Assembly: GCA_973895155.1 (NCBI GenBank)
Contig: OZ316893.1
Span: 21,250,955-21,314,954 of the forward strand
DNA from: Marsupella aquatica
Taxonomy: Eukaryota > Plantae > Marchantiophyta
Reading direction: 5' to 3'
DNA: 64,000 bases
A program made the translations under genes and the position numbers. Shown in pieces: positions 17,596 to 50,100 of the stretch. Position 1 is the stretch's first letter. Each line of letters starts with the position of its first letter. The notes under the pieces are model-generated. The model was not told the DNA's origin. It made no database searches and saw only the letters and a program-made list of their open reading frames with translations.

Positions 17596-20589
17596 CAACA
17601 TGACTCAAGAAAAAGCACTTGCTCACATTGTAAATGCTTTAATAGGGCGTCTCAATCCTTGGAGTCGCGGGAAAAAAAAGAGGCCCGGAACTAGTAGTTT
17701 CGGTCACCGTTCAGCAGTGTGCGGGACACAGATTTTTGTGTCCGCCACTTTTTTGCCAGGATTCCGTCTCTGACCGCGACTGGAAGTAGCAACGCAAAGT
17801 TTGAGACGCCCTAATGTACCCAAATGATACAAAGAATCCTTGAAAATGAAATTTATTGCAAACCAGCAACATTCTGTGTCCAACGCTTCTTAAAGCTCGC
17901 ATGTGCAATCGGGCCCTCCGTCAGTGAGCAGTCTTGTGACTAGCAACACAAATTGTACATCCATTCCCTAAATTTGGCGCCCAATTCCATAAGTGCATTT
18001 TCTACTCTACTAAGGATGGACATGCATTTATTAGTAAATGCAATTCTATGGATTGATAAGTGCAGATAAACCTTATCAATGGGTTGTGCTTATAAAGTTG
18101 TCATTCAGAAAAATGATTACAGGCCTGAGTGCGCTTAGAAAAGAAATACAAAAATTGCAAAGTCTGTGTACAATAAAAGAGAAGAACAGGGTGTCTTGCG
18201 CTAAACCAATTTTGCAGGGTATGGAGTGCATGCTTAGAGAGAGCCAACTGTACAGTAGAGAGAGAGCTCAATGCGGTTTGCATCAACAGAGTTCTCAGTT
18301 GGCTATTTCCAGGCCCAGCTTCTGGGTTCCATGAGACCCAAGAAGATGGCCAAGTACTTGCCCCCTACAGAACTTGGGATGTCCAGAAGAGCAATCCGGC
18401 ATAGGATGATTTTTAAGGTTTTTCTTTTCTTTGTTGCTAGGGTGGCTAAAGGCACCTTGTGTGAAGGAGACTTTGCTAAGAATATTTTTTATGAGATTTT
18501 CCTAGAATAATTGCTGGCATTTAGGTCTCTCTAGATTTAGGACTAGCCATCAGATTGTGGATAATGGGGTGTGTGGCTAGGTGTGAAACTGACCAATAGA
18601 AGAAAAAGACTTTTCAGTAGTGAATATGGTGAATTTTTGCCACCGAAAGAAACACTGATACAAAGCCAATGTAGTACTTTCCATCAGCCCTCACTTGAAG
18701 CTAAACCTCACTCCAAGCAAAAAATAAATTGTGATAGCACTTTGATGTTTCCAGACACTTTGATGTTTCCATTTTTTCTCTGCAAGTTATTTGTTGGAGA
18801 ATATTTTCTAATCTACCATTTAACTACAATCTTCCTGCAACCACAACAGTTGCTCTTGAAAACACTTCCTCTTTGAAGACATTTTCACTCTGTCAACAAC
18901 AGTTCTTAACAACATTGACCCAAAGGCAAAATTGAACCACAACAATTATATTTTTCAAAGTCACAGCACTTCTTTGCAACATCAATTTCACTTGACAAAG
19001 ATTTCACTCAACAAAGCTTTTGCTAAGCAAGTTCTTTATTTGATGAACTGTTCGACTGACCATTCAGATTCATGCCAATCTTCCCACAAGTGACCTCAAC
19101 ACTTTCTTCATGAAAAACAAAGTACAATGAGAGAGCAAGGAGAGCAAAATGTTGTCAAGCCAGAGAAAAACTTCAATAATCTGACAATCTGATGTTCCTT
19201 AACTCCCTAGTTATAGGTTATGGACACAAAAGTTATGGACTACACAATTCATAGTCCATAACTTTTTGCCATAAGGATTGGTCTTATGCCATAACCATTA
19301 GTCACTGTATAGGTTGGTGAAAGAAAAAAACAATAAAAACTTTTATAGAGTCTTGTGAAAAAGTTATAACCTATTCTTTATAATGGCCAAATGTCATCAT
19401 CCGTAATTTCCAAGCTTTGAGACTCCCTAATATCTCACTAGACTTTCAGTTCTCTTTGTTCTCAACATCAGTTTGCACAGAGACTAAAGTGGGAGAATGA
19501 ATAAATATACTGAAAGAATTGAGTTCCAGCATCGTACAATAAGAGAGCAAGTGTAAAAAAGTAGTCAAATCAGAGAAAAACTTCATTATCTTAGTACACC
19601 ATCTCAGTTTCTTCTTTGCACTCAGTATCAATCAGCAAGAAGAGCAAAAGGGGGAAGATAAAATTAATCTTCTGAAAAGGTGAACTCCAACAAAGTACAA
19701 CAAGAGAGCACTGAGAGAAGAAAAGTCATCCAAAGGCTCAATAAGAAAGGAAGAACTCTTAGTCTAGTCGTCCTAGTCCTCACCGAGCCCCACACTTTTT
19801 CCTGCCTTGCTTGCATGCATTTTGCTTTGCTGCCATGATCATGAATGAGCGAGAAGTGACACTACCAGAACAACTTGTTTTCACTTTTTCTCCCACTAAT
19901 TGGACAAGGAGGAAAAACAAAAGTAGCCAATGGACTGACACTAATTTTATGGACAAGTGCTTTTTGAACGTCCAAGCCTTACAGGGCACCTCTATAAGTA
20001 TCCCATATGGAGTTAAATCATGGACATAAAACAGTTTTATGTCCTAGGTTATAATGCAGTTATGGCAGTGCTCTGATACTCCATAATAACCCCTAATCTT
20101 CTCCCATAATGTTCCCGACTTAGTCAAGCAATTAGCTGCCATTTTTTTAGTGAAAATGTCCTAATCATTAGTGACTAAAGATCCCTAATTCCTAAGCTTG
20201 CAATCCATACTCTTATGTGACATGATATCTTTTGGACACAAGTGATCATGAAGTCAAAGACAAGATTTGTTTTGGACAAAAAAAATGATTGGACATGATA
20301 ATTGAGAGAAGTGTCATGGACGGGTCTTGGTAACTGCACATCAAAATATGACATATACTATATATGATACCCCTACATATTGCACATCAAAATATGATAT
20401 ATATTATATATGATACCCCTACATACAGTGATAATCTTAGTTTTTTGTTTTCAATCAATGAATACAACCACATTTTGATGTGTGATTTACCAGCAAGGGT
20501 CATGGAAAATCTATCAGTCCATCTAAGCTTTAAATTCTATAAAACTACTGTAAGTTTATTCCCAGATATTAAGAGCCAAACTCAAACAT

Positions 20590-21630
20590 TCTTAAAACAA
20601 ACATTCTTAAAACAAGCCGCCTCGAAATATTCAAGGCCCCCAAAGAGTTAATGATAATTGCTTCATGACATTAACAAGCGGCCTCGAAATATTCAAGGCC
20701 CCCAAAGAGTTAATGATAATTGCTTCATGACATTCTTAAAACAAGCGGCCTCGAAATATTCAAGGCCCCAAAGAGTTAATGATCATTGCTTCATCACAGT
20801 ATCAATCTGTAAGTAGCCCCTAATCTTTTCTCATAATGGTCCCGAACTGGTCGAGGAGTCCCTCTTCAAAAGAATGAGATAAATATGCCCTAATCATTCA
20901 TCGCTATAGTACACTCATCACAAGCGTGTAGCAAAAGCAGATTCGTACTTCGTAAACTATTGTAAGTTTTCAATCGTTAATAAATATTTAATTTTATTCA
21001 TAGGTATAAAACTCACTGGAACATGCTTTACAACAAGTGGCCTCGAAAGGTTAAAAGTTCCGAACAGTTAATAATTATTGGCTTCATGACAGATCAATCA
21101 ATAAGTAGCACCCAATCTTCGCCCGTACTGGTCGCCAACTGGTAAAACGGTTCTTCTTCAAAATAATCATTACTTACGACAAATCTATACAGGAAAACTG
21201 AAAAACTCCCTAATTAGTAAAATTTATTCTAGGTTTTTTATCGTTAAAAAATACGATAATTTCGCGGTATAAATCCAGCCAACAGTAAGATTCGTAAAAC
21301 GAGCGGCCTCCAAAGATTCTGAGGCCCCAAAGAATAATGATCATTGCTTCATCACAAAATCAATCAATAAAGAGCCCCTAATATTCTCCCATAAAGATTC
21401 CAAGGCCCAAAAGAATAATGATCATTGCTTCGTCACGAAATCAATGAATAAATAGACCCTAATCCTCACCCAAAAGAATAATGATCATTGCTTCGTCACG
21501 AAATCAATGAATAAATAGACCCTAATCCTCACCCATACTGGTCCCGAACTGGTAAAGCACTTCCTCGTCAAAATAATTGAATAAATATGTCCTAATCCTT
21601 ACTACAATCTCTAGAGTACGCTCATCACAA
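20590..21630. repeat. Complex (higher-order) tandem repeat array
   Basis: A ~63-67-bp subunit (aacaagcggcctcgaaatattcaaggcccc...taatgataattgcttcatgac) occurs 3 times at 20610-20800. Longer ~250-290-bp units restart near 21030 and 21297. A 67-bp sub-duplication lies at 21407-21535. Confidence 0.85.
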
Positions 21631-23255: not shown

Positions 23256-25605
23256 TCATCTCAAATTGACTACACGGAGCTCATATCCACCATGAGCGAA
23301 GTGGCAACGGTCCGCAAACGTGCAAGTACCCTGGAGGAAGTTCTTGCACATCTTCGTCTTGAAGCTTCTGGAGCCCACAGGAGAGACCTTGGTGGAGAGC
23401 AGCTCTTTGTCCGTCATGTACTGTCTCACCATAGCGCTTGCCTGCTCGATTTGCTCGAGGGACCCCTCCATCTCCACATTCCTCAAGTTGGCGTCCGTGG
23501 TGTGCTCTCTGATGGACACTTTGGCTCCCGTCACTCGGTTGATCTCCTTCACGTTCGCTCCAGCCTTGCCGATGATCGCTCCAGCGAAAGCTGCGCCGAT
23601 GCTCATCTTCTTGGTCGTGGTTGGAGAATCGAATCCAAGCCTGCTACTTGTTCCAACCGGCGATGAAAGAGAAGCTGCAGGGGAGCTGACGTCCAGGTAG
23701 TACTGGTGGTTGAAGCTCCCCCCGTTGTCGAGGCCCTGGATGGACCCGGTATCCAAGCTGAGGCTTAGGTTCGATGACTGTCTGGAATAGTCACGAGGGG
23801 AGCGTCCGCTGATGGAGCTGCCGAGGGAGCGAACAGACAGAGAGCGAAGCGGAGAGGGGTTCTCGCTCTTGCCTCCTGCTGCTTGGTGGAGGTCGCTCTT
23901 CCCATGCGCGAATCTGCACTTGTCTCCGTATTTGCAACCCTCCGGCGTATTGAAGCGGAGGCAGAGGCGGGTCTTGTAAACGCTGGGATCGGATTCCTCA
24001 CCGCCAACGTCGTCTGATTGAATGGTGCTGTTGCTGTTGTTGCGGTGATGGTTAGATCCCAAGATGCTGCCGCCATTTCGTCCTGCAAAGTCAACCAAAC
24101 AAGACGCCCGCGCCGGATGGCATGGCCGCCGGAGCCCTTGAGGAAATTGACGACCATTCCGCTGTACTACAGTAGCAGCGCATCAATCCTACTCAGTCTA
24201 ATCCAGTGCAAGAAAAACCATTGCGGAGAAAACCATTGCTGTGTCGTCTCAGTACTTCTCTTCAGAAGAAGCTCAATACTGAGCTCTAATCTGGTATTCC
24301 TAGGTTCGTAATATCAGTACCGTGGTCCGCTACAGTATTAGTTCAGTCAAGGGGCTGGCTTGGTGCCGATGTTTGTGCGGAGCTCTTTATTCGTGCCGAG
24401 GTTTACTCCTCTTCTCTCGTTTTGTCTCTTTCACTGCGATCGTTGCTCCTACTCTAATGGGAATTGTCTGTATCTCAGGGATGAGTCGTTAGCTGTGTCC
24501 GACGAGCGCTAATCTGATATCCGCAAAGTGGTCAAGAAGTATCCTTTTTAAGGTCAGTGTTCGTTCCTTCTTCGTTTCAAATGCCGTCTGGCTGTCCAGT
24601 ACTTTTCTGTTTCTCCCTCTGCAATGTTTCTATCACCTTCTGCAGCCCCGATTGCTTTTGTGTTTGTGTGTGGAATGGATTGCCTGGTGGTAATGTCGTA
24701 TATTGCAACTTTTGGGTCCCACTGATGTAACCTAGCGTGTTGTTCCGACATGGCTCGGCCCGAAGACCTCGAAAAAGCCGAGTAGAGTATCTATTAAAGT
24801 AGAGAGCTTCCGCTTGTCAAGTCAATGAGAAAGTAGATAGTTGCCTACATCACCACAGACGTCTGGAGTCCATACTGTCATTCCCTGGCAATCTAGTGCG
24901 GAAATGTGGGTGCAGCATTACAGGAGACGACTGAAGAAAGAAGCCTACTGAAGAAACACGCCTACCTTAGCTCTACGGCATCCCGTGTGGACTGACCAAA
25001 GCCTACGTTAGCTGCGCGGAATTGGATATATCGGTCTAGTGGATCAAGAGTCGGTAAAAGTGCACCCGAATATCTACCTCGCTAAATTTTTGATATTGTT
25101 CTTGTGGGTGACATCATTAGGATCTCCTGGGTTTTACCAGTGTAGAAGTTTGCTGTTGGGAGTTCATTACTCGTCCACAAAATTATTCGAGACGGCAGAA
25201 GACACGACACGACACGGGCGTCGATCGAGATGAGCTTGATAACTTAGCTTAGTTCACACCGGAGACTGCGTCTATTGTGGTTATTCCAGTATATCCGAAA
25301 GTGACTACACAACGGCCAGATATCGTCCATTAGTGTTAACATCTAGCGGATCGAATCTGTGCATCTCATCATGAACAGGGGTCGTAAATTGGGACTAAAA
25401 TCTACAGTATTTGGTATTGCGTAGGAGTAAATAAAATTTCCCTCGGGGATGTATGGTGCGAATTCTGGGAATAGGTTTGTGAGCATTTTCCGAATAGAAA
25501 AGAGGAGGGAAAGGGAAGCTAACCTGAGTGGTGATGGTTGTTGGAGTCAGTGCTATTGAAGGAGTGACTGCGAGTAGCCATGGCATAAGATTTGTCGGCG
25601 TTCAT
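23256..25605 (-). CDS. CCCH zinc finger - KH - CCCH zinc finger RNA-binding protein (KHZ1/KHZ2-like)
   Basis: Exon 1 is 25524-25605 (MNADKSYAMATRSHSFNSTDSNNHHHSG, phase-1 donor GTTAGC). It joins the acceptor ttgcag at 24082, and exon 2 is 23256-24082. Domains: YKTRLC-x8-C-x5-C-x3-H, a KH domain with the IIGKAG loop, and FKTKMC-x7-C-x5-C-x3-H. A 5'UTR intron acceptor lies near 25678. Confidence 0.88.
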
Positions 25606-27008
25606 CTCTTGTACTGCTAAGATGGCCGAGGTGTAGGAGTTGCCGTGGTTTTTGAAGCTGCCCGGCGTGCCCCAACGCCTGCACAAAAGAAAATAAATGG
25701 AGAAAGGGCCAATAAATAATAAATGGGAAATAAAGCGAAAGCTGGAAATTTACTGTCGGGCTTGGGCTCGTGAAAAGTTAGAGACTGGAACAAGCCCCCG
25801 TTAAGTATGATATAATTCGTGCAGATAATAGATATGGGTAATATAGTCATGAAATGACCTAATAGTGAATAGTCTCCGAAACCATCCCCTCTTGAAAAAA
25901 TCAAGAATGAAAACTCTAGATTGATGAAGGAAATCCGCGCCGGTTCGAGCAGAACCCATCTAATTCACCTTGTTGATTTCGCATTGTGGAGGCCTACGAA
26001 TCAATAGTTTCTGACAAACGAAAATATGGACCGTAGTTGCAGCTAACATGGGCTCCGAATTGCGCGCAACGCCAATCATTTGCTGAAAAATTGGAGAATG
26101 CTGTGCAGCTCCATGTCTTCTTTCCAGATAAGATGATAAGATGCTTATGGAAAGGCCAAACGGAAATTGTAATATCTATTTCTTAAGCAGCACCATGGGG
26201 ACAATTCGTAAATCTTCTCACAACTTTGACCGAACCAGCTCCACATGTTCCTAGGACCAAAATTTACCTTCATATATCAAAGTGCCAAAGGTTAAGAACG
26301 CCGAATCTGGTGACAGGGTTTATACCAGTAGTATACAGGTACCTATCAAACGTCACAGTAGCCAGATAGCTATCATCCAACACGCCAGGTACATATCATA
26401 TAGACAAAATGCGCCATACATACCACAGTAACGTTTTACTCATAGCCGGTACTCACTGCTGTAATCAGTTTACATGATCTTTGCTCAATTGTAGAACATA
26501 CATAACGAAATGTTGACCGAATGGGACACAGACCTTCAACAGACAGCCATGTGAAAATAAATACCCGACCTTTCCAAACCCACAATCGGGCCCACAATGA
26601 GACTAGCTTGAACTACAAATGTAGCAATGTCACATTGCGCCGGCGGCGGGTATATCGAATTAGTGTAACCTGTGGTTTTAATTAAAATCCATACACGACG
26701 TTCCGAAGCCAAATTGAGCTGTACAAAAGTAACAAAATCATTTCAATTATATCCCCCTCCAACTCTCGAAAAGAATCACAATTATGTATACGTGGTGACT
26801 ACGTATGGCTACTTTAGTAAACCTAGTCTTTGAATTCTCGGTTTGTGCCAAAGATTCGATGTCAATGCTGTAATCAGGTGGAGTAAAGTGGGTCAAATTA
26901 CAAAGTGGGACAATCAGTCCGCGCAAGAATGTTCAGAACCAACATATATTTTTCCCTAAAAAGTACCACCAAACATGGCACTTATAATTATATCCCCAAA
27001 CCATACAC

Positions 27009-30000
27009 TTACTCATGCTGTGGTTGTAAGAAATTGAAGGCGGCGTTGTCCCGTAGCAGTGGAGGAGCATCCACTTCTGACAAATCTACCTCTGTCATCG
27101 CCTTTGATATGTCATCCACAGTGAATGGAATACTGCGCAGAAAAAAACAAATACTAACTTCGTCAATAGTGTCACTCTGGGTTGCCTGAATAAAGACAAC
27201 CCACCTAGCATTCTAAGTGGTCAAACAAACCTTGACCTTACAAAACTCAAACAACATCGTGGACATTCCTTCGTTCACTGTTTACATAAGACAGGTCTGC
27301 CAGAATATTCGAACCTTGAGTCATCATCCAGCAAAAACGAGTTGCTGACGGCGCTATTGGAATCTTCAGTCATCAATACTCTCATATTTGCAATCACCTG
27401 CAAGGCATCAATGAGAATTTAGAATCAGATACATGCATAAGGCAATACAGCCAGTTTTAGCTGAGTGTATGCACAAAGAAAGTGATTCTGAACCCACCTC
27501 TGGAGAGACACTGTGGGTACCATACTTGTCATCCCAGTACATAGTGCTGATGCGGTAGAGTTGTTGTATACTTAGAACCTGAAGCACAATTCAATTTCAG
27601 AACGTCTTGAAACAGAGCATCTTGGAAACACAACTGTGACAACCATTGAAGTGACAAGAGTACGCTATAGTGCATAGAATTGGCGGAATGCAGGAGAATT
27701 AAGGAAGATCTGAGGTACTTCACATACCGGACAAAGATCGTGTGTTATCTCATCAAGGGACTTCTTGGGTTTTTGATGTATGACCTGAAAACAACCAACA
27801 AAAATAGGAACGGGACCACATGAGAACTTGACAAAAAACAACAGGAGTTGTCGAGAATATGAACCACAAGTGGGGACAAGATGAATTTGCAGAACATATA
27901 TGACGTTTCCGCACTACTCTAGCATTCCCAACCTTTTCTACCTCGACAGTACCTCTCAAACACACCTGAATGAAAAAATCCTACTTGGGCCAAATGACAG
28001 CAGGAAAAGGGTGCCAGGAACGGCGATTTTAATAAGCAAAGCATTCACTCACCAAAAACCCAACAGCTTGTCGGATGTACTTGAGCTCATCCCAAGACGA
28101 GCCGGCATACTGCAGATGAATGCTCCTATAATTAGTCCTTGAGTTAATTGATTCGACCGACCTCGATGACCAATATATTCAATATAGTTCAATACAGAGA
28201 TTACGTTGCAATGTCAGCTGCATTCATCCACAGGTTTATTCACAAGCGGAGCAATTTACCTCCTCAGAAGCATCGTAGATCCAGTGTTCAAGCTCAGCAA
28301 GCCCTGCCTTCACATACTCTCCATTGCTAAACGAGCAGCATTCTCGTCTCAAAAGCAAACTGTTGTTCCAGTCAGTTCATAGTCATTAAATTAATCAAAT
28401 CTGGCATTCAATTCTTCGTACGATGTAATATAGGTTTAAGTAGACTTGTGAAATCTAAAGCTAGAAGACCGTACAATAACAGAACAGGACAGACCTGTTA
28501 AAAAGCTGTACATTGATGAATGAAAATATTTGCGTGAAGAGCTTGCGAACCAAGAAGGATGGCACCTATAAGCACCAATAGACAAAAAAGGGTCAGCTAG
28601 CTATTAACACGAGATTTCAGAACTCTTCATGTATCTCTTTGGAATAACAAAGGCAACGATTGACTGTCGTGCCATACTGAGACTCGAGGGAACCCAAGTG
28701 TAAAAAAGTTAGGTCTTGTGTTCTTGGACAACTCACATGAGTAGCTTTCAATGTGCTCAGGAGGGAGCTCAAGCTGCTGATAATGCTGTGCCAGTGACTG
28801 CTCAACGTTTGTTGATTCGACATATTGCTGACGGGTGACCTTGATGGCATTTTACCAAGGGTAGCCCTAGATGACCTTGGTGCCTGTATGACACAACGCA
28901 GATCGTCGAATTAGTCCTCACATAAAATCTCACAATTGAACTATTTACCTACCAATTGTAATTTACTATTATCCTTAAAATTGCCGTTGAACCAGAAAAC
29001 GTCCTGGCACACCTGAATGCAAAGACTTAATAAAGGCGATATCTCCTTCTTGAGGTTGTCTCGTATCATTCCATAAATTTTCTCAACATAAGCAGTGAGC
29101 TGCTGCTTAAAGAGCAAGGCGGGATATTTCGCCTCCACTTGCCGCAAAACATCCAATCCACCCATAATCGCTCCATTTCCGAAAGAAACTCCTCCCCCAG
29201 AAGGGGATGACCGGAAACCCTGGGTAATATACCACAAGTAGATCATCAGATGAACGGCTCACACCTTACCCAGCTACGGATTTAGAATCCTGAACAGAAC
29301 TTTAAAAAGCACTTCCACAGGCTCAGTGATGCTTCTAACTTCAGAACCAACAGTCAATCTACGTGTTCTGCAAACCATTCGTGTTAACAAAATGTCTGAC
29401 ACAATGAAAGGGCTGGCGATGACATCTATCCCACGGCAAAGCTCGTACTTGTGTCATGCGTCCAAACAGGGTGACAGAATTGGGTCTGCGACGTTGTGGG
29501 GTTCCACCCGCGGCACCAGTTGCTTTTAATGTGCGTTGAAGCAGGAACAGTAATGTGGACGCATTTGACAACCAGTAAGACAAGACCTCATTGTTCTCCT
29601 GGCTCTGCAAGACATTCGACATGGCAGTTGGAATGATTGTTCCGCAAAGCATTTAGAGCCAAAGCATAATTATGCCACGTGTGTAGTTCCATCGTGTACA
29701 ATGCTTTAATTACATTCCTGGTGACAAATTCATACTTGCACTAATTAATTGTCAAAACAATAAAAGGTGAACTTCAGCTTTGAGCTCTTACTTCTATGGC
29801 TGTTCCCACGGTTTGAATGATCCGGTCAAATACATTAGTCCTCTCAGCTTCAAATGAGCGCCACTGGAGGAGGGACTTGTAGATAATAATTGCAGCAACT
29901 GGTCTATCATGGCTGAATCCAACATCTTGCATGACAGACTGCAAAAGCGAATCTTGATTTTCCTGTAAGATCGTCATCCAACAATTGTCCATGTGAAATA

Positions 30001-33000
30001 ACTTTCTGTGACAACATAGTCAGGCAATGCTTTAAGCAATTGGTAGACAGAATAATGAATGATTGAATCCCTTGCACCCATCTGGGGTGCTAACCCTGAC
30101 GCGACCTAGATCACGCTTCAGCGGACAGGTGCGTCTAATTCGTTCTCATGAACTACGAGAAATCGAGCAAGGATCAATCTGATTGCTATGATAACTCATT
30201 ATCAGTCAGACCTGTTCACACTAGGTCAAAATGTGAGCGAATTAGAACGCCTTATACGACATTCCTGAATCCATGCACTACTTTATACGTACAACTGCAA
30301 GCCTTCTACTTTGCAAGGAGGTCCCGAGATTGGTGAAATTCATTATAATATTCTCCTACAGAACGATGGCTCCGTACCTGTTGTCTGTCAATTAGAAGCT
30401 TCTGGCGCCTCTGTTCTGTCTCGGAGTGGTCTCTTTCAATTTGAGCAGTGGTTGGAGTCTCCGGCTAGAAAATACACGAAGCAGAGTCAGGACCTGGTTT
30501 GCTAGCCTACATTCATCATTTGTGTACCAGCTTCACCGGTCAGTCAACAGTATATTGTATTAAGTGCTATACAGTTCCAAATTTGAACATTGCAGAATGG
30601 AACCGAACGTTCCATTGAATGTGGACGCTGAGTCTATAAAAGTTTCGAAAAGTACTTACAGCAACAACTCGGTGTTCGCCATTCCCAAGATAGCCATTCT
30701 CTGGACTCCTCTGCATACCAAATAGAAAGCAATGCAGGAGTGTCCATTTGATGTAAAAAACGACGTTCACATGAGATCCAGTGGTCTAACACCAAACAGA
30801 AATTTCCTCTGGCAACAAGACCAATTTACCAGGGGACCAAAACCTTCTATCAGAAATAAGGTAACAAGAACAAATCCATAACCATGAAATCAGACTCGCG
30901 AAAATTGAAAACAAGCAAAAATGTCCATCAGTTTGCTGAAGTTCGCAAACATCGTTATCTAATATTACCTGAAAAACTGTGGTTTTGAAACGACTACCAA
31001 GTCCCTTGGTCGGTGACATGACCAACGTTTGCTGGCGTAGAACTTGATTCTCTGACTCCATATTCGAAAGCTTCTCTTCCAGCCTAGAAAGGTAGACGAA
31101 AATGAAGATCAGATTAGTTTCCACTCCATTAAGGATATAGCGCGAAAATTGGACTATCATTTGGAATGACAAACAAATTCGAGGTTGATAAACAAGTAGT
31201 CGACACACGCGGAGTTTCCAATGCTAGAACAATGTAAAACATTTCACACGATACACCCAATGATAGAGTTATGCTAGACATGGTCCAGAAACTAGAACAC
31301 CAACATAAAACAAATGTAGATCAAATAAGGTGCAATCTCCGTGATAATTCACAGCTCTTGGCAGAATCAATCTTTATTCCAGAAATGTGTATACAAGTAC
31401 AAGGTTGATTCAGAACTTCTGATGGTCAATTTTACCCTTCGGGCTCTAGTTTTCTTCATCAGTTTTCTACAGTGTCGAAAAGATTTCCTAGAATAATTTA
31501 AATGCCTCTCTAGAAAGGCTCTCGCAACTCGCGATACTTTACAGTGGATCCTTTGACCCTTTCTTGTTCATGACTGCTAATCGAACCTTCTGCTTGAAGG
31601 TAAATCTGACTTCCACGCAGAGAATGAATATGTCGAACATAAATCCTATCCATGACTAGTACTGGATGTTAGTTTGCAAATCTAAATTAGGGAGGGAGAT
31701 ATAAATAGACAACTGATGAGAGGTGCATCTATTCTACCCGGCATAGAAGTACAAAAGAATTCTGCGTTTATCAGAAGAGGACTCTGATGACAGAAGGTTG
31801 CCTAAGCCTGCTAGGTGTAGGACTTGAAGGACATTTGGTCTCAGAGCTTTGATATGTCCTCTGATAGTCTACGAATTGTGCCACTAGAGGATCGACGCTT
31901 CTCAATGGGATTCTTGTTGACTGAGATGGAGGAGTTTTCGTGTCTTTCACATTTGGAGATGAGAAATAGCCTTTAGCTAGTCTTGGAGATGCAGGAGGAG
32001 AAGGCCTTAACGACGGGGAAGGAATCCTGGATATGGAAGAGGTAGAATTCCGCCTTGAAGGGGAAGGAAGCCGGGGTGACGGTGATGCAAGAGTTGGCTT
32101 TGCTGATGGGGATGGAAGTCTGGGCGATGGTGATGATGGAGTACGCTTTGCTGATGGGGATGGAAGTCTAGGCGATGGTGATGGTGGAGTACGCTTTGTT
32201 GATGGGGATGGAAGTCTGGGTGATGGTAATGCAGGAGTGCGCTTAATTGATAGGGATGGAAGTTCAGGCGATGATGATGCAGGGGAGTGCGTTGGTGATG
32301 GGGGTGAAAACCTGGGTGATAAAGATGCAGGAAGAGAATGCCTTCGCGATTGAGATATAGTAGAAATCACTTGGTTACTGCGAAATCCCCCCTTCAACAA
32401 GAAGGCGTGAGGTGCTGGGGGTGTTACAGGTGCTACTGTATCACCAGAAGAAGAGTCGCTGGATGAATCAGAACTTTTCTCGCGAACACTCAGAGGATCG
32501 GGACAAAACTTGACAGGCTTGAGAGAAAGAGAGCTTTCCAGTGCTTTATCTAGTTGCCGAACAGAGAGAAGGGCTTTCGTTGTAAGGGATTCTCCTGATG
32601 AGAGGGACTTCGGTGAAGGTTTTCCACGAGGATAGTGCAAGTCTTTCCCTCGTGTTGGACGAAACTTTGCGGAACCATTAGAGAAGGAGGTTGATATGGG
32701 TTGAATCCTGCCACCACAAGAATCACAGAGTGGCTTCTCTGGATCAGGAAGTTTTGCAACCCCATTTGGAAGTGGGGAAGTGGCATCAGGGAGTAGAGTC
32801 AGCAAATGGTTTGAAAGTGGGACGAGCCAATCCTCGGGCGTCTCACAAGGCATCTCTAATAGTTGGAAGGGCTTAGAAAGCCCACCAGACAGGCTGACAC
32901 CCAAGAGTTTGGTGAAATTGTCTTCATTTTTGTGGGGGGAGAGTAAACCCTCCAACATTTCAGAACACAGCTTCGAATCTTGCGCACTGGGCGCAAGTCC

Positions 33001-36000
33001 ATGAAGCTGGCTGCCAAGCCCCCACATGGGTCTTCGTAAACCGTTGGCCAGCCTGTCAAACAGAAGGGTTAGGGTTAGAAGTTGTTGCCTAACGGGTTTA
33101 GATGTCTCCTGTTAGCAACACTCGACCATTCCAATAATGCACTATGGCATTATCAGAGAAGTGATCGACGACAACTACCATGTGATTCATTAGTTTTCAC
33201 CAAAGTTATACAAATTGGGAAGATTGGCCACAAGCTTTGAAGGTAAAAGGTGAAGGCTCTATCCAACCTATTCACGGCCTCCTGCATCTGTTCAACCTTA
33301 GCCTCTGCCTCTTCTGCCCGTCGTGCCCTGTCTTCACTTTCCTTCTTCGCTTCAGCATACTTGTTCTCTGCTTCAGCAGCCTCGGCTGTTTTCTTTTCAA
33401 GAGATTCAATCATGGCCTGCCGAGACCCCAATATTAATCAGAGGTTCTCACAACATTTACAGAGAGTATCCATCAACAGCAGTTGCAGGTTTTTCCTCCA
33501 CGAAACAATCACAGAAACCCAGCAGAGAACACCCCTAAAGCTGAACCGTAAAAGGTACGAGTGTCAATGGAATACCTTGAGAGCATTGTTGTCCGCTATC
33601 AATTTTTCCACCTTAGCATCCGTGGCTTCAACAGAAGGAACTCTCTCAGCAGCAAGAACAGCCTGCCCAAGGGCAGCCTTATTTGATGCTCTTTCATTTG
33701 ACAGATCAGCACTTGCAGACTGAACTTGCAACTGCATCTCATGCATAGTAGCTTGAAGCTTGGAAATTTCTTGGGTCTTGGCGTCTTCAAGATCAGTCTG
33801 CAATTATCAAACACAAAGAGAGTCACTAATTATCAGAATGAAAGAGATTGTATTATTGCGCTCCAGCAGCAGCAACATGTATAATTCTTGGTTAAGACAC
33901 AACAAGATCACAACAAGAGTGAGCATCAATAAACCGCAATCACACCTCTGATACTGTTGCCACTTACAATGGAAAGCAAATTTAGGCCTTTTAAGAGGAT
34001 CCCAATCATAGATCAGAAACAGCACTTTGAGATAGCCCAAGACTTGCATCATGCAGTAACGAAATCAGATACATGTCGCTGAAAGACTGAACCGTTTATC
34101 AGTCAACGATTCCATTCGTAAAGTAGGGTTCTTACCCGCATTCGTTTCTCCAACTGCAGCCGCCATGTAAGCTCCTCACATTTTTTCTCAAGCATGGTCT
34201 TGGCTGCTTGCAGTGCTCCTGTTTCCTTAGCAGCCTAAGAAAAATTTTAATAACCCAGGTTAGCTCAACGAGAAAGAAAATTCCCATACACAGTACACCA
34301 TCATCTACACCGAAGTTTTCAGAGAGGACAAACCTGCTCAGACACGGTATTGGGACACAACTGCATTTACAAGAAAACTTCAATTGCAAAGAAACAGACA
34401 AGACTAGGAACACAGATAGTAACACAGGACATTTCTGCTGCGAGAACTCACTCTGCAGCCATAGGCATATTCAACACAAATAATCAACCACACTCACCAT
34501 TTTGAGGTTTCTGAGCTCTTTCCTAGCCACCCTGCTTCGCCATGCACACTGAAATGTAATAGCAGACTTCCGTAGATTCTTGTAGTCGGAGCGAGCTTTA
34601 TATCCTCGCAATTGTGTCTGAATAGATCAATAACATAAATACAAACCAGACACCAATGGAAAGTGTCAGTCTGAAACTTCAAACCATCAGACACTCAACT
34701 GACAGTGCAACTGAGAGGTGATATAGATATCCGTGCAAGGTTTGTATCAGAACGCAAAAGACCTCACATCGACGTATCTTCAAGCTTCGTAGCTACGCAC
34801 ATCACACAATTATAAGCTTTCTTCTTAGTGGAGAGTGCAATCGGCAGAGAGAGTACAAGTCAGGCCATACCTGCATTTTGATAGCAGCTTTTGTTTGACG
34901 TCGGAGTCGATACTCTTTGCGCGCAGCCATACCACGTACTCCAGACTGTATAACAATAGTTGCTTCGCGAGTTCTGTGATATGACTTTTGTGCTTGCCAT
35001 CTTCGAACATTTTTCTGTATAGCAACAGCTGCTGCTTCCTCTCTCATACCTTGATATAACTTTCGTGCGAGTCTCCCTCTCCAATGGGCCTGAATCGTTA
35101 TTGCAGCTTTCCTCTTGGCTCTGAACTCTTTTTGAGCCAGGAATGTACGAACTTGGCGCTGGACTATCCTTGCAGCATTGCTCAATACTTCGGCCCTCTT
35201 AGCATCCAGCTCTGCCATCTGGCCAGCCCTCAGAAAGACCTTCGTCTTTCCAACCTGATAGTTTGTCAGACCCATTTTCTGCAAAAGCTTCTCGGTAGCA
35301 CTCTTTTCATCATAATTTCCCTCAAGAAGTTCTGATGCTAATAGGCTAAATCTGTCGATGAACTCATCAAACGTCCGTCTCGTAGGATATCCAGCACAGC
35401 TGATTCTGACAGCCTCAAGGACACCACCACATCGAAGCTGCTGCAACACATTGGCGTTTTCGAAACGGCCGGGTTTGTTGAACATATTTGGTTTCACGCA
35501 TCGAATGTAGTGTGGCTCTGTTGTGTTCAGAGTCTCCATCAGTGCTTGAAGTTGTTGCTTAAATCTTGTACCAATCGAGGAGAACTTGTAAGAAGACTTG
35601 GAAGACTCATCAGAAGGTGGTGGAAAAAGCCCCGCCACGAATGGGCAATCTGATGAACCCAGCAAAGCTTGATGTTCAGCAACAACGTAGTCCTTATTCT
35701 TGTCTAGGAAAAGATCCGTCTGGTATGTTACATCCCCAGCATAGTGACTGATGGTGAAATCAGTCTGAGCAAGCTTTGGTTTGCTGAAACGCTTGTTTTT
35801 ACTGAAGCTCTGGAACAATTTCGTTGCAAATGTCTCATTTGTGGCCTTGGGGAACATGCTGCAGACAAATGTACCAGAGCAGGTAAGCTGTACGTTGAAC
35901 GAATGGGATAAATCATTGATAAAACAACATCCTAGCAAAGTGGCTTGCATCTTGCACATGATTGGTACATCCATTGCTGATTCAATTTTGTAGAAACTAC

Positions 36001-39000
36001 ACAGTTTGAAGAAGGGATTACAACTCAAACTATCGAGCACACATGTAGTAATGGACATGCTAAGTCACGAGAATTCATCATACCAGGCTTCATCAAGAAG
36101 GGCGATGATACCCAGAGGCTTCTGTAAAATTAGTCAGACCAGCATTTTAGAAGATAAGATAAATACGAGCAACGTTCCCACAAAATTGTTAAAGGGCATG
36201 CAATTTCATAACCAACTACATCCTCATAGCTCAAGAGATAAGTAGCAAACAAGTTAAGATCGCAAGGACCTTCTCTATGAGATCCAGAACATCTTGGTTG
36301 TCGACAAACTCAATGTAGCTCCAGTCAATAGCTTCTTTGGTGTACTCGTCCTGTTCCATCTTGAACACATGCTACAGAAAGCAACCACACGGTGTCACTG
36401 TTTAGCAAAGTTTGCGCACATAAGAGTAGACAATCAATAAAAATGTCCCACACAGACAAGGCTCATGCATCCAACAACCGACCAAGCATTGCCGTCGCCA
36501 GCATATCATCCTAACTGTTCTTACACATTTGTCTCCAATCAAGTCAGCACACCTGATTGAAATGCTGTTGCAGCTTCTCATTGGCAAGATTGATGCAAAA
36601 TTGCTCGAAGCTGCTCGGTTCATGAAAGGGTCAACAACAAGGATTGATAAGACTCCTATTCACTCAATTTGCAACATAGAACTGCAGACAAATGCCTTGC
36701 GCCAGCACCAGTCAACTACCTCGGTTGACTCATAACTCCAGAATGGATCAAAGCTCCAAATAGCACAGAAAGTAAAAAATAAAAGTTAGGACCATGACAA
36801 GATAGCTTATGAAAGATAATCGAACATCCTCCTACCTGTTAACATTGAAGCTCTCAAAACCATAAATATCAAGAACTCCCACAAGAGAAGTTGAGTCGGG
36901 ATCTTGTCCAATGGACTTGTTCACTTTGTCAACAAGCCTGTTCAGTGCACAACAATCCTGTCATGTAAATCAAGTGACAGTGAAGCTGGCCAAGGCAACC
37001 ATCATCATGCGCAAGTCAATTGACATTTTAAACTTCAAACAGACCACAAACCTTCAGATGAACTGCAAAAATTAGAAGTAGTAATGAACTAATGCAGCAG
37101 GTCAGGGTGAGGCACCCTGGTCTTACCAATCAAACAAACGGGAATAGAGTGTCTTTGCAAGTGTATCTCGGTTTGTCGCAGCAGCCACTGAATCAAGGGT
37201 TTTGGTGATGTTCTCATCCCGTGTAACAATGATTCGCTCACAAAGAGAATCGAGAAGATTCTTCACGTTGCACCTACATTTTTATAAACGGAGAAAACTG
37301 TGAGACAGACCAGGATACTTAATACAAGTATTCAAGACAGTTTCTGTAAACCAATGTTTGACTAAAAAACACGACTTGACAAAAGGAATGGACTCCTCCA
37401 ACAGCCTATTGAGATGGATCCACATTGAGCCAAAACACCCATGACCAATATCCTGGAGACAACTGAAACATACTTCAAGAGCTCAGCTACTGCTTCAAGG
37501 TGCAATTTAGACTGATCATCCTTCAGAGCTGAGGAATCGTGCTCTTTTCCAGGAATAAAATCGACATTCCCAAGATGCAATATGGCAGCCACCACCCGAA
37601 AAATTGCTTCCTGAAACGATAACACCAACTCGATGAGATGGTCCAAAACCTTAGTAACGCAAAATCGCAAGTACTCCAAAAATTCCAATTACGTCAGAAC
37701 CAGGGGGTAATGCAGCCTCGTGCAGTGGGTATGATTTCAATTTCGGATCTTCACTCAATGTGTTTAGATGGACAGTCCAGTTGTCATTGTTGTTAAAAGG
37801 TCCAGTGATCTGACTTAAAGCCTTCCGTCAAAAGTATAACAAATGCCCGACTACATACAAAGTTAACTCTCTTTGAAAATAGGACGATACCTGTTCTTCA
37901 GGGCTTATCCCGACGACATCCATTGCTCTTCTAGTCTTCACATACTCCCGTGCATTATTGACATTATTCAACTCAAACACAGGACTTTGATTCAGATAGT
38001 GAAAACTTCGAGGATCACCAAGCTTGTACTTTTCACAGTCCTGCAATATTTCAACAAAGAGGAAAGAAGGAATAAGCAAGACGAAGATACTTTAAAATTT
38101 CCTTGACTTTCTGGTAAATCCATGTTTCAGCACAGCTTCAACTTGTCATCTTTCAAATGTCCTACTCACTTACCTCTGGCGAAGCACACAACTGATAGAA
38201 GCAATGATAGTTCCGCTCAGGATCTGCAATTTGTACAACTCGAGACCTTTCCAGAAGATACGTCCGGATCGCTGCTCCGGATATCCTCCCACTTTGATCA
38301 AACTGTATCTCGACAAACTTTCCGAAGCGACTGCAGAACAAGGCCCTGTGATGTCATTATCTGTTTGGACAAAATTCTAAAATCCAAAAAGATTTCAAAT
38401 CCAGAGTGGTCCGGCTTAGGAAATACTGGGTTCAACAAATATATACACAGCATTCTGTCAATCCCTTAAAGAAGTTCAATCAGAAAGAACACCAACCGGT
38501 TCTACTACCACCACCTTACCTAGAATTGTCGTTACGAGATGTTTTCGCATTTCCAAATGCCTCAAGAAGAGGATTCGACTGCCCAAACACAATGCATCCA
38601 GCCCAAAATTGTGAGTCTTCAATAGAACCTTGTTGTTACAGTAGCTTTACCGAGCCGTGAGTTTCGTGTTGCCGACAGTTTTAAGATCAGAGGGAACATC
38701 CTTTATAGCTAGCAGATATACGACTTTCAAACTGCTTTGAAACAAGTTTCAATCAACCCACCTCTAAAACTTGTTGTTCCACAGTCCTGCCGTCTGTGTT
38801 GGCTCGTCCACCCATATAAGCCAGATACTGCATAATCAATTTTGTTGTTTCTGTCTTTCCTGCTCCACTTTCTCCACTCACCAGAATCGATTGACTTTTC
38901 TTCTCATTCATCATAGCCCTACATACACGGAAGCAGAGTGTTCCAGTTTGAATTTGTTATCTTACTGTCAAGAAAGGGCAAAGATGCGAATTCCAACAAA

Positions 39001-42000
39001 TCAACCTCGACAACCTAGTATTTTAAAACACGTAGTTCTAAAGATTGTGAAATTCAGTTATGTAGTCGGAGACTACAAACTCTTAGGTCCAAGTCTTCTA
39101 GTACTTTTGCCCAACCCTCTTGTCAACGCTCGTCCTTCTCAAGTGATGCGGTCCCCGCATAAACACTCCATATCTACGCAGGGCCATCATTAGGAAAATA
39201 CCTGTATGAACTGTCAGCAACTGCAAACACGTGCGGGCTCAACTCTCCCAAGGGAGCTCCACGGTATTGCTCCATCATGTGGTTATCATATAGGTGCGGT
39301 AGCTTTGCAAAAGGATTGATGGCAATCAAAATATTACCAGTGTATGTCTGAAAACCACAAGGGCACCCAAAATTAACCAGAGTTCTCAAAATTACTTAGA
39401 AAACAATACACGTTAGGGAAACTAACCTCATAACAAGGCTGACAGATGCACGCGCGCAACATACAAAGACAATGTGCTTGTACATGGAAAGAACTGGAAG
39501 CTACACCGCTTGTGGTCGCCGTAACATAGGCTTTATCACACAATCTGATCCCGCAATGATCTTGACCAAAATGCAGGCCCCATTTGTAAGGACTATCAAC
39601 GGCAACACCATGCCTTTGCTTGACTGATCATTCCTTGGTAGCAAAAAAAGTAGACAAAAATGCTATGCATATACGAAGAGAAAGTCGACAGCGTAGAACC
39701 CCGAATATTTGGTATTAAAGACAAGTTTAAATTAGCTTACATAGATTTCATCGAGTTCATATCTAGTTGCGAGGTTGTTCAAAACCCCAGGTTCATGTAA
39801 ATAGGCTAATTTGGTCATGTCATCCACTCCTCCTTGTTGTGCGTCAGTGTCTTTGGGATAAACATTAGAAACCAACGACGTAACCTGCAAACGTAAAATT
39901 ATACCCAATTAATAAGATGCCAGATTTAGAACATCCCATGATTCAATTGCCAAGATAGCATGTACAGAGCCCGATACCACTCAAATTTCCATTCCAACTA
40001 CATGTTCCTATGTTCAAATTTTCCTGCTCATAAAGTACGAAGGTCTGCGTCAAAGAAAGCTCCCTGAAAGGGAAAAATCCCACCGTTTTGCCACCCTGGA
40101 TCTGAGCCTTCACTTGCTTTCCATTAAATTCCACAACCTCGGCCTCTACCCAAGCTGAGGTGGAATCTTCCACCCATACTTGAGACCCGACGGTAATATT
40201 AACAGACGCCTGCATCAACAGGATATCACGAGGATAAGTATTTTAGTGGTCCATCAAATAACCACCTTATGAGGACTTGAACCCCTCGACAGTGTGTACC
40301 AAAAGACAAATTAGAAGAAATCCCGTGAAAATGATATCATGTTAGCTCACATCAACTGAAAATTTGCAAAATACATATTGTTGTGCGGCCAGCTGAACTC
40401 AATTCCTATGTAGCCCTTGACAGAGATGTCAGTGCGGTACTCCAGCATCCAACGCAGATTCGCAGCTATAAGAGGCATGGCAATATCTTGAAAGGAGATT
40501 GACTGTCCATTCCTTTTCCATCTGAGGACCAACAGGAAGGAGTGTCCCCCAAATTCTCTTCGAAACGGACGTCATTGCTAAAAACCCGTCGAACTCTATT
40601 GCGAGCAAAGAGTAGGTTAAATAACCCACTCCTTGACTCAACTCCGTCCCAAGGTTTCATAGACTCTTGAGCTTCGGGACAGAAAGAGTTTTCAGGAATC
40701 CATTCACCTTATTGATGCGGGTGATAGACCATGCTGCTCGACGAGTAACGTTTCTCGTATACCTTAACGTGCAGTTCGCTGAACGACACGATTTGCTAGC
40801 TTTCCAGCAACCTCTGACAACAGACACCCTGCCAAATCACTCGACTTCCTTTAAAGTGTCCCAAGTAAGGACTCTATCGTATAATAGCTATAGGCAGCCC
40901 AATAACTGGGAACCCCCGTTCATTCCACGGCTCGGTCGCCTTATCCAACCAGGGATGATTTCTCTTACTGAATGTCGCTTGTTCCAAGGGATCCCCTCGG
41001 TACCTTTTGGGAGGGGGTGAAGTACTTGAAGAGCAGAAATTATTAAAAAAATCATGCCAAACCCCAATTTCCAACCTTGATCCACTAGTCATGTGCATCG
41101 GCCTAAATCGAGCATCAACTTGAAACAGGATGCTAACAGATTGAGGCAGCAATATAGCGCTAAAACCTGAATCAATCGTCGTCCAGTGTTCCAGGGGGAA
41201 ATGATTAGGTTGTGGACCAAAGCCGGGAACTCCGGGTTTGTCAGCACTGGACCTTGTACGAGGAATTTTCATCGGCAGCCTATTTTCATCCCCCTAAACT
41301 GTAAACTGGCCGAATCGGTCCCACGTCCAGGACTAATGGCGAATGAATATAAATCACCCGGACCAGCAAACAAGATACATAGCGATTATAAGAATGACAT
41401 AAAACTCAACTCCTAAACCAAAATCAGCAATTGGCGACGAGATATTTTAACCAGGTTTGGTGAACGAGACGGTCCACAAGTATGGTGCTTAGTCTCAAGT
41501 GAGGCAGATTCTTGACGACTGGATGCCTAAGTTATAAAACGGGTTACGAGAGTGACAACACTGTACATGGTCTGCACGGCTGCGATCCATGGCTGTCCAT
41601 CGGGGTCCATCAGTCAGAGTGACAATTTCCTATCCTCAATTTCTTATCGTGCACATAACTGCACGGACCATGCCCTGTACCCCAACACTAACATTGTGAA
41701 CAGAATCTATCCGTTGCAGACAATATCATAAATCCCATGCTGACGAACAAGGGACTTACCAAAGCCAAGCGAAAAGCCAGAGGAACTGCAGGGATCAGAC
41801 CTACCGGCTGCTTTAAGTCCAAGCACCTAAAGCAAGAACTAGCCCACCCTGGAAAGCGCGTTTGGTGAAAACTAGCGTTTGAAGTGCAAGGGCCAGCCGT
41901 AGTAAACAAATTCAGGCTTGAGGAACTATTACAGCAGACATGAGAGGCAGCTCCCCATAATTCGTTGGTGCGAAACAAACGAACAATGAAGGGCGGCATT

Positions 42001-47178: not shown

Positions 47179-50100
47179 TGTTGAGCATAGACGACATTCG
47201 TAACGGCAAGCCCATGAACCATCCAACGTACAATAGTCGACACAAAGAGATACGTGGTTCACCTCCACATGAGGCTACGTCCACGGGAACACACAAGAGC
47301 TTTATTGCACTCTAGGCCGACCAGCCATACCAAGCATCCACAACACAAGCTCTCTCTATCTCTCAATTAGCTCCGTAACAATGAACCTAAGTTCCACCAG
47401 GGTCTGGCATCAGCCCTGGCTTAATACACAACAGCACTACCGCTAACATTAGCTAAGTCCTAACCCAAGTTAGACTAACTGTAGTTAGCTCATGAGTCAC
47501 AAGACTAGAGCAATATCTAACAAACTCCCCCTTGACTCTTGTCTTGGGGACTAGACTAAATGCTACCATATGGAATCCTCAGCGGGAAGTTCTAGACAAT
47601 CACCAAACCAGGTCTCCCCCTAAAAACCACAAGGGTTAACTAAGGGTTAACTAGAACTAAGCCGTAGCCAAACAGGAATGAGTAAGTCATATACAAATAG
47701 TCACACATTGCTAAATAACTCTACTTGCACTACAACTGCAAAACCTGCAAAGTAGCACGGTGTCTTGAGAAACTCTCCAAAAGAATCACTTTGGTAAAGG
47801 CATCAGCGGGATTGAGTTTTCCATCAATCTTGACTAGCTCAAAAGTTTTATCAGACACTGCTTGCCTGGTAAAATGGTACCTGATATAATGTGCTTCACC
47901 CTGCTATCCATCACCTGGTTAGCAGCCAAGTGAAGAGCACTCTGACTATCACAGTTTAGAGTCATTTTGCCATGCTCTAAACCCATCTTCGCCATCAACT
48001 TGTCCAACCAAATTGCTTCCTTTGCTGCTTTTGCTGTTGCAATATACTCTGCTTCTGTAGTAGACTGAGATATACACTTCTGCAAGGTGGATTTCCAACT
48101 GATACATCCTCCTCCAAGAGTAAATACAAACCCAGTTGTAGACCTCCTTGTATCCACACAGCCTCTATAGTTAGAATCTACATAGTCAACCAACGTTCTA
48201 TCTGATTTGACATCAAATAGTAATCCATAGTCCTGTGTACCCTTCACATACCTGAGAATCCATTTCACAGCTTCCCAGTGTACCTTCCCTGGATTTGACA
48301 TGAAAATGCTAACCTTGCCCATTGCTAGGGCCAAGTCAGGCCTAGTACAAGTCATCAAATACATCAGACTGCCTACTGCCTTCTCATAAGGAATCTTAGC
48401 CATCAGACCTTTCTCCACAACATCCGTAAGAGAGAAAGCCGATGATAACTTGAAATGTGAAGCTAAAGGAATACTCACTGGCTTACAGTTCTTCATGTTC
48501 AATCGTGCAAGTACTTTCTTCGCATACTGGCCTTGACTCAAGCACAACTGTCCAGTCTTAGAGTTCATAAAAATCTCCATCCCTAAGATCCTCTTGGCCT
48601 TACCAAGACCCTTCATCCTGAATTCAGCATTCAATTTTGCCTTGAGACTGTCAACCTCAGATTGATCTTTAGCCACAATCAGCATGTCATCCACATAAAT
48701 AACCAGAATGATGAAACCAAACACATCATTCTTGACTGATTTTATGTACACACAAGGATCATACACCATCCTTGTAAAACCTTGAGCAAACATGAAATCA
48801 TCAAACCGCTTGTTCCACTGTCTGGGAGATTGCTTCAATCCATACAAGGACTTGAGCAATCTGCAAACTAAGTTCTCTTGGCCCTTCTTCATAAAGCCTA
48901 GTGGCTGTCTCATGAAGATCAACTCTTCCAAGTTGCCATAGAGAAAAGCATTAACAACATCCATCTGATTCATCACCAGACCAAAAAACACAACAAACTG
49001 ACACAAGATCCGAATTGTGGAATATTTAGCCACCGGTGAAAAGACCGTATTGTAATCCACTCCTTTCTCTTGAGTGAATCCCTTGGCAACAAGCCGTGCC
49101 TTGTAGATCTTATCTCCACCCTCTGAAGGATTGTCCTTCAACTTGTAAATCCACTTGCTGTCCACCACTTGCTGACCTCTTGGAAGCTCCACCAGCTCCC
49201 ATGTCTTGTTGTCACTCAAAGATTGCAACTCCCTCTGCATTGCTGCATTCCACTCATGCTTCTGCTCTGAAGCACAAGCCTCACTGTACGAAGAAGGCTC
49301 TCCTTCCAAGATCAAAGCCATGTCATCTTCATCAGGTGCAATGTCAATATCATCTAGCTTAGATGAGTCTGCCCATTGACCATACCTGGTAGGAGCTCTA
49401 GTAGAACGACTGGAAGTTCTTCTAGTAGATGACTCAGGCTGATCTGTTGCTACTGCTGGTTGAATTTGAGGTACCCCAACAACAATATGCTCCTCTTGTT
49501 CCATCACAGGAACTAGCTCCAATCCCAAAGCTTCTCCATCTCTCTTGTCATGAACAGCATCATGACTAATCTCCCCCTCAACCCGGTCCGGGATGGGAGA
49601 TTTCCCCTTGTAAGTATGGGAGTCCTGAGAACTCTCCCCCTCCTTTGATGATCTGGACTCATTAAAGGACACATCTCTATTGACAATTAGTTTACAGGTT
49701 ACTGGATCCCATAACCTATAACCCTTCACACCTTTCTGATAGCCAAGGAAAATGCACTTCTTCGACTTGAACTCCAGCTTGGATCGAAGCTAGGAAGGTG
49801 TAAGCACATAAGCATCACATCCAAAAATCCTCAGATGTGAGTAATTTGCTGGACGCCCGTACCTCATTTCAAATGGCGTCTTGAATCCAATAGAACTGGA
49901 TGGAGAAAAATTTACCAAATAAGCTACAGTGTTGACAGCTTCAGCCCAAAACTCATGTGGTAAGCATGATTGACTCAACATACTCCTCGAGCGGTCCAAT
50001 AGTGTTCGGTTGAGTCTCTCAGAAACACCATTCTGCTGAGGAGTATAACTTGTTGTGAGATGGCGAGTAATCTCATGCTCCTTACAATACGTTCTAAATT

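Follow-up and report, generated by a model that had tools for sequence, protein, structure and literature searches.

The window analysed here, 64,000 nucleotides (nt) of the liverwort Marsupella aquatica (GenBank assembly GCA_973895155.1, contig OZ316893.1, positions 21,250,955 to 21,314,954 of the forward strand; positions below are counted from its first letter), carries a myosin XI gene on its minus strand, and a long intron of this gene holds a second coding exon at 31771..33052. We are confident that this is a real and conserved coding exon, apparently undescribed, and it is very likely an alternative exon restricted to liverworts. Judged by the layout of the surrounding sequence, it is probably an alternative last exon that ends the protein, by which the globular tail with the DIL cargo domain would be replaced by another tail.

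Splice sites and open reading frame

All features of the gene are given on the minus strand. Exon 18 (33268..33416), the final coiled-coil exon common to both paths, ends at 33268 in a phase-2 donor, AG/GTTGGA, with the GT at 33267, and canonical exon 19 (30969..31083), which leads to the globular tail, has its first base at 31083. The intron between them measures 2184 nt, compared with 100-415 nt in the other 30 introns of the gene. Within it, an alternative acceptor has its first base at 33052; both acceptors are in phase 2 and both are followed by G CTG. The exon opened by the alternative acceptor finishes the split Arg codon, continues for 426 codons (33051 to 31774) and ends in a TGA stop (31773-31771) with a TAA directly after it. 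An earlier reading made from the letters alone (the sequence-only reading) had named this donor, both acceptors with their phase and G CTG start, the 426-codon frame and an AATAAA further down the intron, and all of these coordinates held.

Splice sites were scored with a matrix built from the gene's own sites. The donor at 33268 scored 4.34, at the low end of real donors (1.8-10.4), and the acceptor at 33052 scored 5.75, a value not unusual among the real acceptors of the gene (-3.5 to 11.2), and ranked 7 of the 125 AGs of the intron, so that the acceptor is in phase as claimed but weaker than the sequence-only reading implied. Two CTAAC branch-site matches were located at -23 and -17 of this acceptor, with no further AG within 36 nt; an acceptor with a branch site and in frame with the upstream donor, as is expected of an alternative last exon, is present here. 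The sub-intron formed by its use (33053..33267) is 215 nt long, of usual size (median intron 195 nt) and of intron-like composition. The branch-site text reads CTAACCCTAACCCT (within 33062-33077, minus strand), and TAACCCTA was found once per strand of the window; we take the branch-site text to resemble a telomere or telo-box repeat.

An exon/intron composition model trained on this gene switched to positive values at the acceptor and to negative ones at the stop, with exon-like composition from about 33067 to 31768 (9 of 13 windows of 100 nt positive) and intron-like composition on either side. Frames of such length were reached in none of 1000 dinucleotide shuffles of the intron (longest 234 codons), none of 1000 of the exon (longest 318 codons) and none of 1000 of its first 240 codons, and the remaining five frames of the exon carry 10-37 stops each. 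Among all stop-free frames of the window the 426-codon frame ranks second, the longest being a retrotransposon frame.

Other accounts of the frame were rejected. Entry by intron retention fails, read-through from 33267 meeting a stop after 38 codons. Origin from a duplicated exon 19 acceptor was discarded, the shared G CTG being not significant at the DNA level (479 of 1000 shuffles scored equally high). A transposon- or RNA-derived insert was likewise set aside, the tail having no match among Pfam families, Rfam or Protein Data Bank (PDB) sequences.

Conservation in Marchantia polymorpha

When longer proteins related to the tail were searched for, one match came up among 7976 candidates of 747-2130 amino acids (aa). 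This was OAE35798.1, a 2086-aa 'hypothetical protein' model from one contig of M. polymorpha subsp. ruderalis, which was compared as protein. Its extra segment begins at the identical junction (E 8e-40 pairwise, 3.5e-31 in the database) and is 39% identical to the tail over 383 aligned columns, so that acceptor position and homologous segment are common to both. Conservation of the frame had been set beforehand as a test in the sequence-only reading, and it was found, beginning with the codon directly behind the shared acceptor. In this protein-level comparison the exon shows the constraint of coding sequence.

The alignable part comprises the N-terminal 240 codons (32332..33051), with 107 identical columns (47% identity) and an alignment z of 57 against 300 shuffles. 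Counted per 40 codons, identical residues number 25, 21, 19, 14, 10 and 18, with the maximum in the first 40, and the first 120 residues are 54% identical to the Marchantia segment. Invariant residues include W10, C29, C69, W75, H82, C109 and C112, and blocks of the form CxxC, APVxPPAP and KGGxRS are kept. The C-terminal halves of window and Marchantia segments agree closely in composition (Ser 45/45, Pro 44/42, Arg plus Lys 27/30, isoelectric point (pI) 12.0/12.0).

The start of the conserved segment bears on whether the frame is a nested gene that is transcribed from a start within the myosin intron and gives a free 418-residue protein read from Met9. This Met is kept in Marchantia, and myosin XI loci can give short transcripts without the head (maize O1; PMC3935558, in the portion of that paper available). 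The branch-site text also resembles a telo-box promoter element. Against a nested gene, conservation starts at the acceptor, and 6 of the 8 residues ahead of the first Met are identical to OAE35798.1, which points to translation arriving from the upstream exon. Moreover, the Met stands in a context with C at -3 and T at +4, just 215 nt of intron lie upstream, and no stand-alone relative was present among 1741 candidate proteins of 234-746 aa. We hold a nested gene to be improbable.

The frame could also be a relic, an ancient coding insertion with only rare translation, or a regulatory dead end, an exon serving only to cut off or destroy myosin transcripts. The database searches yielded no protein with the exon that is supported by complementary DNA (cDNA), out-of-frame donors past the stop (31587, 31611) could yield a decay-prone transcript, and truncating splice forms have been reported for maize myosins (PMC3935558, as far as the accessible text goes). 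Set against this, the 426/435-codon frame has persisted, 47% of residues being identical across the first 240 codons, while neighbouring coiled-coil exons have diverged to 69-73% identity (the flanking exons are 69% and, for exon 19, 95% identical to OAE35798.1), and a poison exon would need no conservation of its protein. Little probability is therefore assigned to a dead end.

Terminal exon or internal cassette

The evidence on the 3' side of the exon favours a terminal position. The stop at 31771 is followed by 687 nt before exon 19, which exceeds every other intron of the gene (maximum 415 nt) and provides room for a 3' untranslated region, and the change to intron-like composition occurs at this stop, not at an internal donor. 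The best in-frame internal GT donor of useful length (32306..32312, CAG/GTTTTC) scored 4.35 and would give a 741-nt cassette; beyond it the frame is still open for 179 codons (19 of 2000 shuffles had no stop over that length), and so are the 94 codons that follow the tandem repeat described below (no stop in 44 of 2000 shuffles); base differences between units of this repeat gather at third codon positions. A candidate poly(A) signal at 31373..31401, weak and built of motifs that arise by chance, consists of TGTA from 31401 and 31395, AATAAA at 31378-31373 and a T-rich downstream region. The canonical 3' end has no AATAAA in the 1.2 kilobases (kb) after its stop. The stop at 31771 lies upstream of all exons coding the DIL domain (approximately 27498..28565; DIL at 1882-1986 of OAE35798.1, placed on the window by tblastn), and a terminal-exon isoform would thus be without DIL.

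Several observations weigh against this reading. The AATAAA, placed correctly by the sequence-only reading, is a weak signal by motif frequency (one copy in the 687-nt region, another in the 6409 nt of other introns, and 0.45 per kb on this strand of the window), and the internal donor at 32312 matches the score of the genuine one at 33268. The sole homologue comes as a prediction in which the segment is internal (436 residues), rejoins the LEEK exon and retains DIL. Conservation is known from two species only, and the C-terminal halves of the window and Marchantia segments have no significant alignment (z 1.9). Two SxIP-like motifs in the tail (341, 379), of the type conserved in EB1 partners amid basic Ser/Pro sequence, are of borderline enrichment (p 0.06), and the Marchantia segment as modelled has none. 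Among database proteins none was seen to end in the tail; a further set of 322 candidates returned the query only, and the one match to the first 240 residues among 1.84 billion representatives proved, by its repeats, to be a WD40-type repeat protein and was rejected as chance.

Some of these points suit an internal cassette exon, included by way of the donor at 32312 or of a GC donor near the frame end (31796..31802, TAG/GCAACC, with a score of 1.98 once an arbitrary 3 is deducted for GC), which would leave DIL intact and set an insert of 247 or 417 residues between it and the coiled coil (the GC site giving a 1251-nt cassette). Such an exon would resemble the alternatively spliced ones in the tail of myosin Va, though much exceeding them in size. 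OAE35798.1 is joined in this way with its 436-residue insert, close to the 427 residues here, in-frame donors exist, with 32312 near the end of the alignable half, and in maize myosin XI, as in myosin Va, splicing often affects the region between IQ and tail (PMC3935558, in the portion available). An additional in-frame donor, CAT/GT at 33026 (score 5.68), would give a 27-nt exon, and weak GC sites are also present. However, OAE35798.1 is a prediction, and a single-path predictor would have to rejoin in order to use both frames; the sequence stays coding-like for 179 codons beyond 32312; and the GC site is without a +5 G and would leave a 718-nt intron. In addition, the full-length thallus cDNAs of M. 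polymorpha, at 4611 and 5511 base pairs (bp), have no room for an insert (PMC7689712, accessible text). A cassette is accordingly considered unlikely, and the alternative last exon is the reading to which we lean: the anatomy of the window favours the intronic last exon proposed in the sequence-only reading, while the homologue that supports the frame is modelled otherwise.

Proposed isoform and its tail

Under the alternative last exon reading, the donor at 33268 would be joined either to the proximal acceptor at 33052, followed by cleavage and polyadenylation near 31350, or to the distal acceptor at 31083, with use of the proximal acceptor coupled to intronic polyadenylation in competition with the distal one. 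The product would be a 1461-aa myosin XI, parting from the canonical protein at residue 1035, with motor, neck and most of the coiled coil, and with a 427-residue tail in place of DIL. Such an isoform would still dimerise, possibly with the canonical form, and would lose DIL-dependent adaptor binding, while its replacement tail would bring targets of its own. The two M. polymorpha thallus cDNAs of Duan et al. were obtained with reverse primers at known ends (PMC7689712, as described in the accessible part). Their lengths indicate that the exon is not constitutive, and a form with its end in the intron would have escaped primers placed at known ends; because these thallus cDNAs are without the exon, choice of the proximal acceptor would probably be confined to a certain tissue or stage.

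The two halves of the tail differ in character. The sequence-only reading had called it a disordered Ser/Pro/Arg/Lys-rich tail, which describes the basic Ser/Pro second half well but not the first 120 residues with their invariant Cys, His and Trp. The C-terminal half has a pI of 11.97 (12.0 in Marchantia), a net charge of +22 and 26 Ser/Thr-Pro sites, and [ST]P[RK] motifs are enriched in both window and Marchantia segments (p 0.003 and 0.03). Inside it lies a 48-nt (16-codon) tandem repeat (32056..32332, 5.8 copies) of SPR-rich units, in which 31 of 55 pairwise base differences fall at third codon positions (four units compared, the pairs not being independent). AlphaFold2, run on a two-sequence alignment, gave a mean predicted local distance difference test (pLDDT) score of 44.8 and a predicted template modelling (pTM) score of 0.12, values uninformative on fold or disorder, so that the suggested disorder of the tail comes from composition only.

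A new binding site would be made by the first 120 residues, which are conserved and contain Cys and His. The second half, basic and rich in Ser and Pro, would attach to an acidic polymer, with microtubules the likeliest candidate, and would be regulated by proline-directed phosphorylation. A phospho-regulated microtubule-binding tail combined with a Cys/His binding module is a guess by analogy and is put forward tentatively. Basic regions of the plant microtubule-associated proteins GPT1/2 bind microtubules, and BPP domains have pI values of 12.9-13.4 (PMC5288973, in the text available). These proteins are like the tail in having a highly basic region and no known domain, a likeness of composition only, and they differ from it in being free proteins, not motor tails (PMC5288973).

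Distribution among plants and in databases

A metagenome scan with one tail exon of the myosin gene recovered 23 plant myosin XI loci, of which 5 stop short of the intron, 2 have no intron there and 16 are genomic. The 16 genomic loci represent 6 distinct genes at 95% identity, are 49-69% identical to the window and all fall outside the window and Marchantia pair. All 16 have the equivalent intron, with 81-860 nt between exon matches and no frame of more than 61 codons, and neither the window nor the Marchantia version of the exon matched any of the 23 loci. In the closest outgroup loci, L002 (6276-7510) and L006 (2343-3538), a gap of about 1.2 kb occurs further down the tail; it holds no frame of more than 85 codons.

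A scan of metagenomes with the two-sequence alignment gave 218 pattern matches and none was confirmed, and an ESM Atlas search produced no usable match. With two positive species, the exon looks restricted to the liverwort branch.

Host gene

The canonical path of the gene covers 27009..40209 in 32 exons with 1535 open codons, to which a start exon that was not located is to be added; if this exon gives one Met, the product has 1536 aa, equal in length to the canonical M. polymorpha protein. Over its N-terminal 1035 aa this product is 84% identical to OAE35798.1, and over the final 503 aa 92%. The path encodes an SH3-like N-terminus, motor, IQ neck, coiled coil and then the DIL globular tail: Pfam Myosin_head and IQ were found in the large exon of the window, and Myosin_N lies just below the cut-off in OAE35798.1, to which part a window exon aligns. 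A single exon of 988 nt (34871-35858, minus strand) encodes the last part of the motor together with the greater part of the neck. With the start exon the gene has 33 exons, compared with 39 in M. polymorpha, which suggests the loss of a block of about six introns (exon numbers, not Marchantia intron positions, being compared). In a FastTree tree the window is sister to OAE35798.1 with support 0.986; the tree was built from five exon peptides in 19 rows, with 6 short loci dropped and no named moss or hornwort included.

A zinc-finger/KH C-terminal variant is encoded downstream (23256-27013). The donor GA/GTAAGT at 27013 skips the canonical stop and is followed by a 155-nt exon (25678-25524) and an acceptor at 24082, which opens a CCCH-KH-CCCH frame that runs to 23256; the phase is kept throughout.

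Comparison with known variants

Arabidopsis XI-J is probably a myosin XI without the globular tail. In M. polymorpha, according to the accessible part of PMC7689712, the single myosin XI gene Mp8g04010 gives a canonical 1536-aa form and a spliced variant with a zinc-finger/KH C-terminus (Mp8g04010.1/.2). The likeness to the present gene lies in an alternative C-terminus made by splicing, and C-terminal switching already present in the gene, with the zinc-finger/KH exons found in the window too, is counted for the alternative last exon. The published variant differs in adding 300 residues after an intact DIL, whereas the exon described here precedes the globular tail and, if terminal, removes DIL (PMC7689712). 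OAE35798.1 differs in rejoining exon 19 and keeping DIL, and no function is described for it.

In the portion of the maize study available (PMC3935558), a ZmXI-11 form without part of DIL, head-only forms of ZmXI-2 and further truncated and headless forms are reported. As in myosin Va and maize myosin XI, splicing between neck and globular tail would change binding partners; those cases involve small cassettes or truncations by intron retention, in contrast to the dedicated, conserved 427-codon replacement tail here (PMC3935558). An engineered Arabidopsis XI-2 fragment, 1-1047, a dimer without the globular tail, is diffuse and decorates actin with no cargo dots, by the accessible text of PMC12540253. 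It is cut near the junction found here (residue 1035), but is artificial and has no new tail (PMC12540253).

The sequence-only reading knew of no such plant myosin XI isoform; alternative C-termini of a myosin XI gene as such have a precedent (PMC7689712, accessible text). No description of the exon was found in a full-text literature search, which missed most subscription papers, one paper only naming Mp8g04010; nor does the exon appear among the known splicing cases listed in the available part of a lycophyte paper (PMC12872637). As a further speculation, which we consider rather unlikely to hold in full, liverworts would splice three tails onto one motor (DIL, zinc-finger/KH and a DIL-less microtubule-binding tail), the third linking actin to microtubules in a liverwort-specific cell type.

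Other features of the window

A Ty1/copia-type retrotransposon pol region (gag-pre-integrase, integrase, RVT_2) lies at 47834-50653 on the minus strand, its two long frames separated by a stop. Downstream of the gene, at 20335-21535, lies a cluster of AT-rich tandem repeats whose periods are 46, 62-63 and 81 nt.

Significance

Work on myosin XI uses Marchantia as a simple model with one gene, and takes the encoded protein for a cargo motor of generic type. If the isoform proposed here is made, RNA processing would let one gene supply motors with different targets, a task for which flowering plants rely on about ten. The reading of knockouts and of C-terminal tags would be affected, since an isoform ending in another tail would be missed by a tag placed at the canonical C-terminus.

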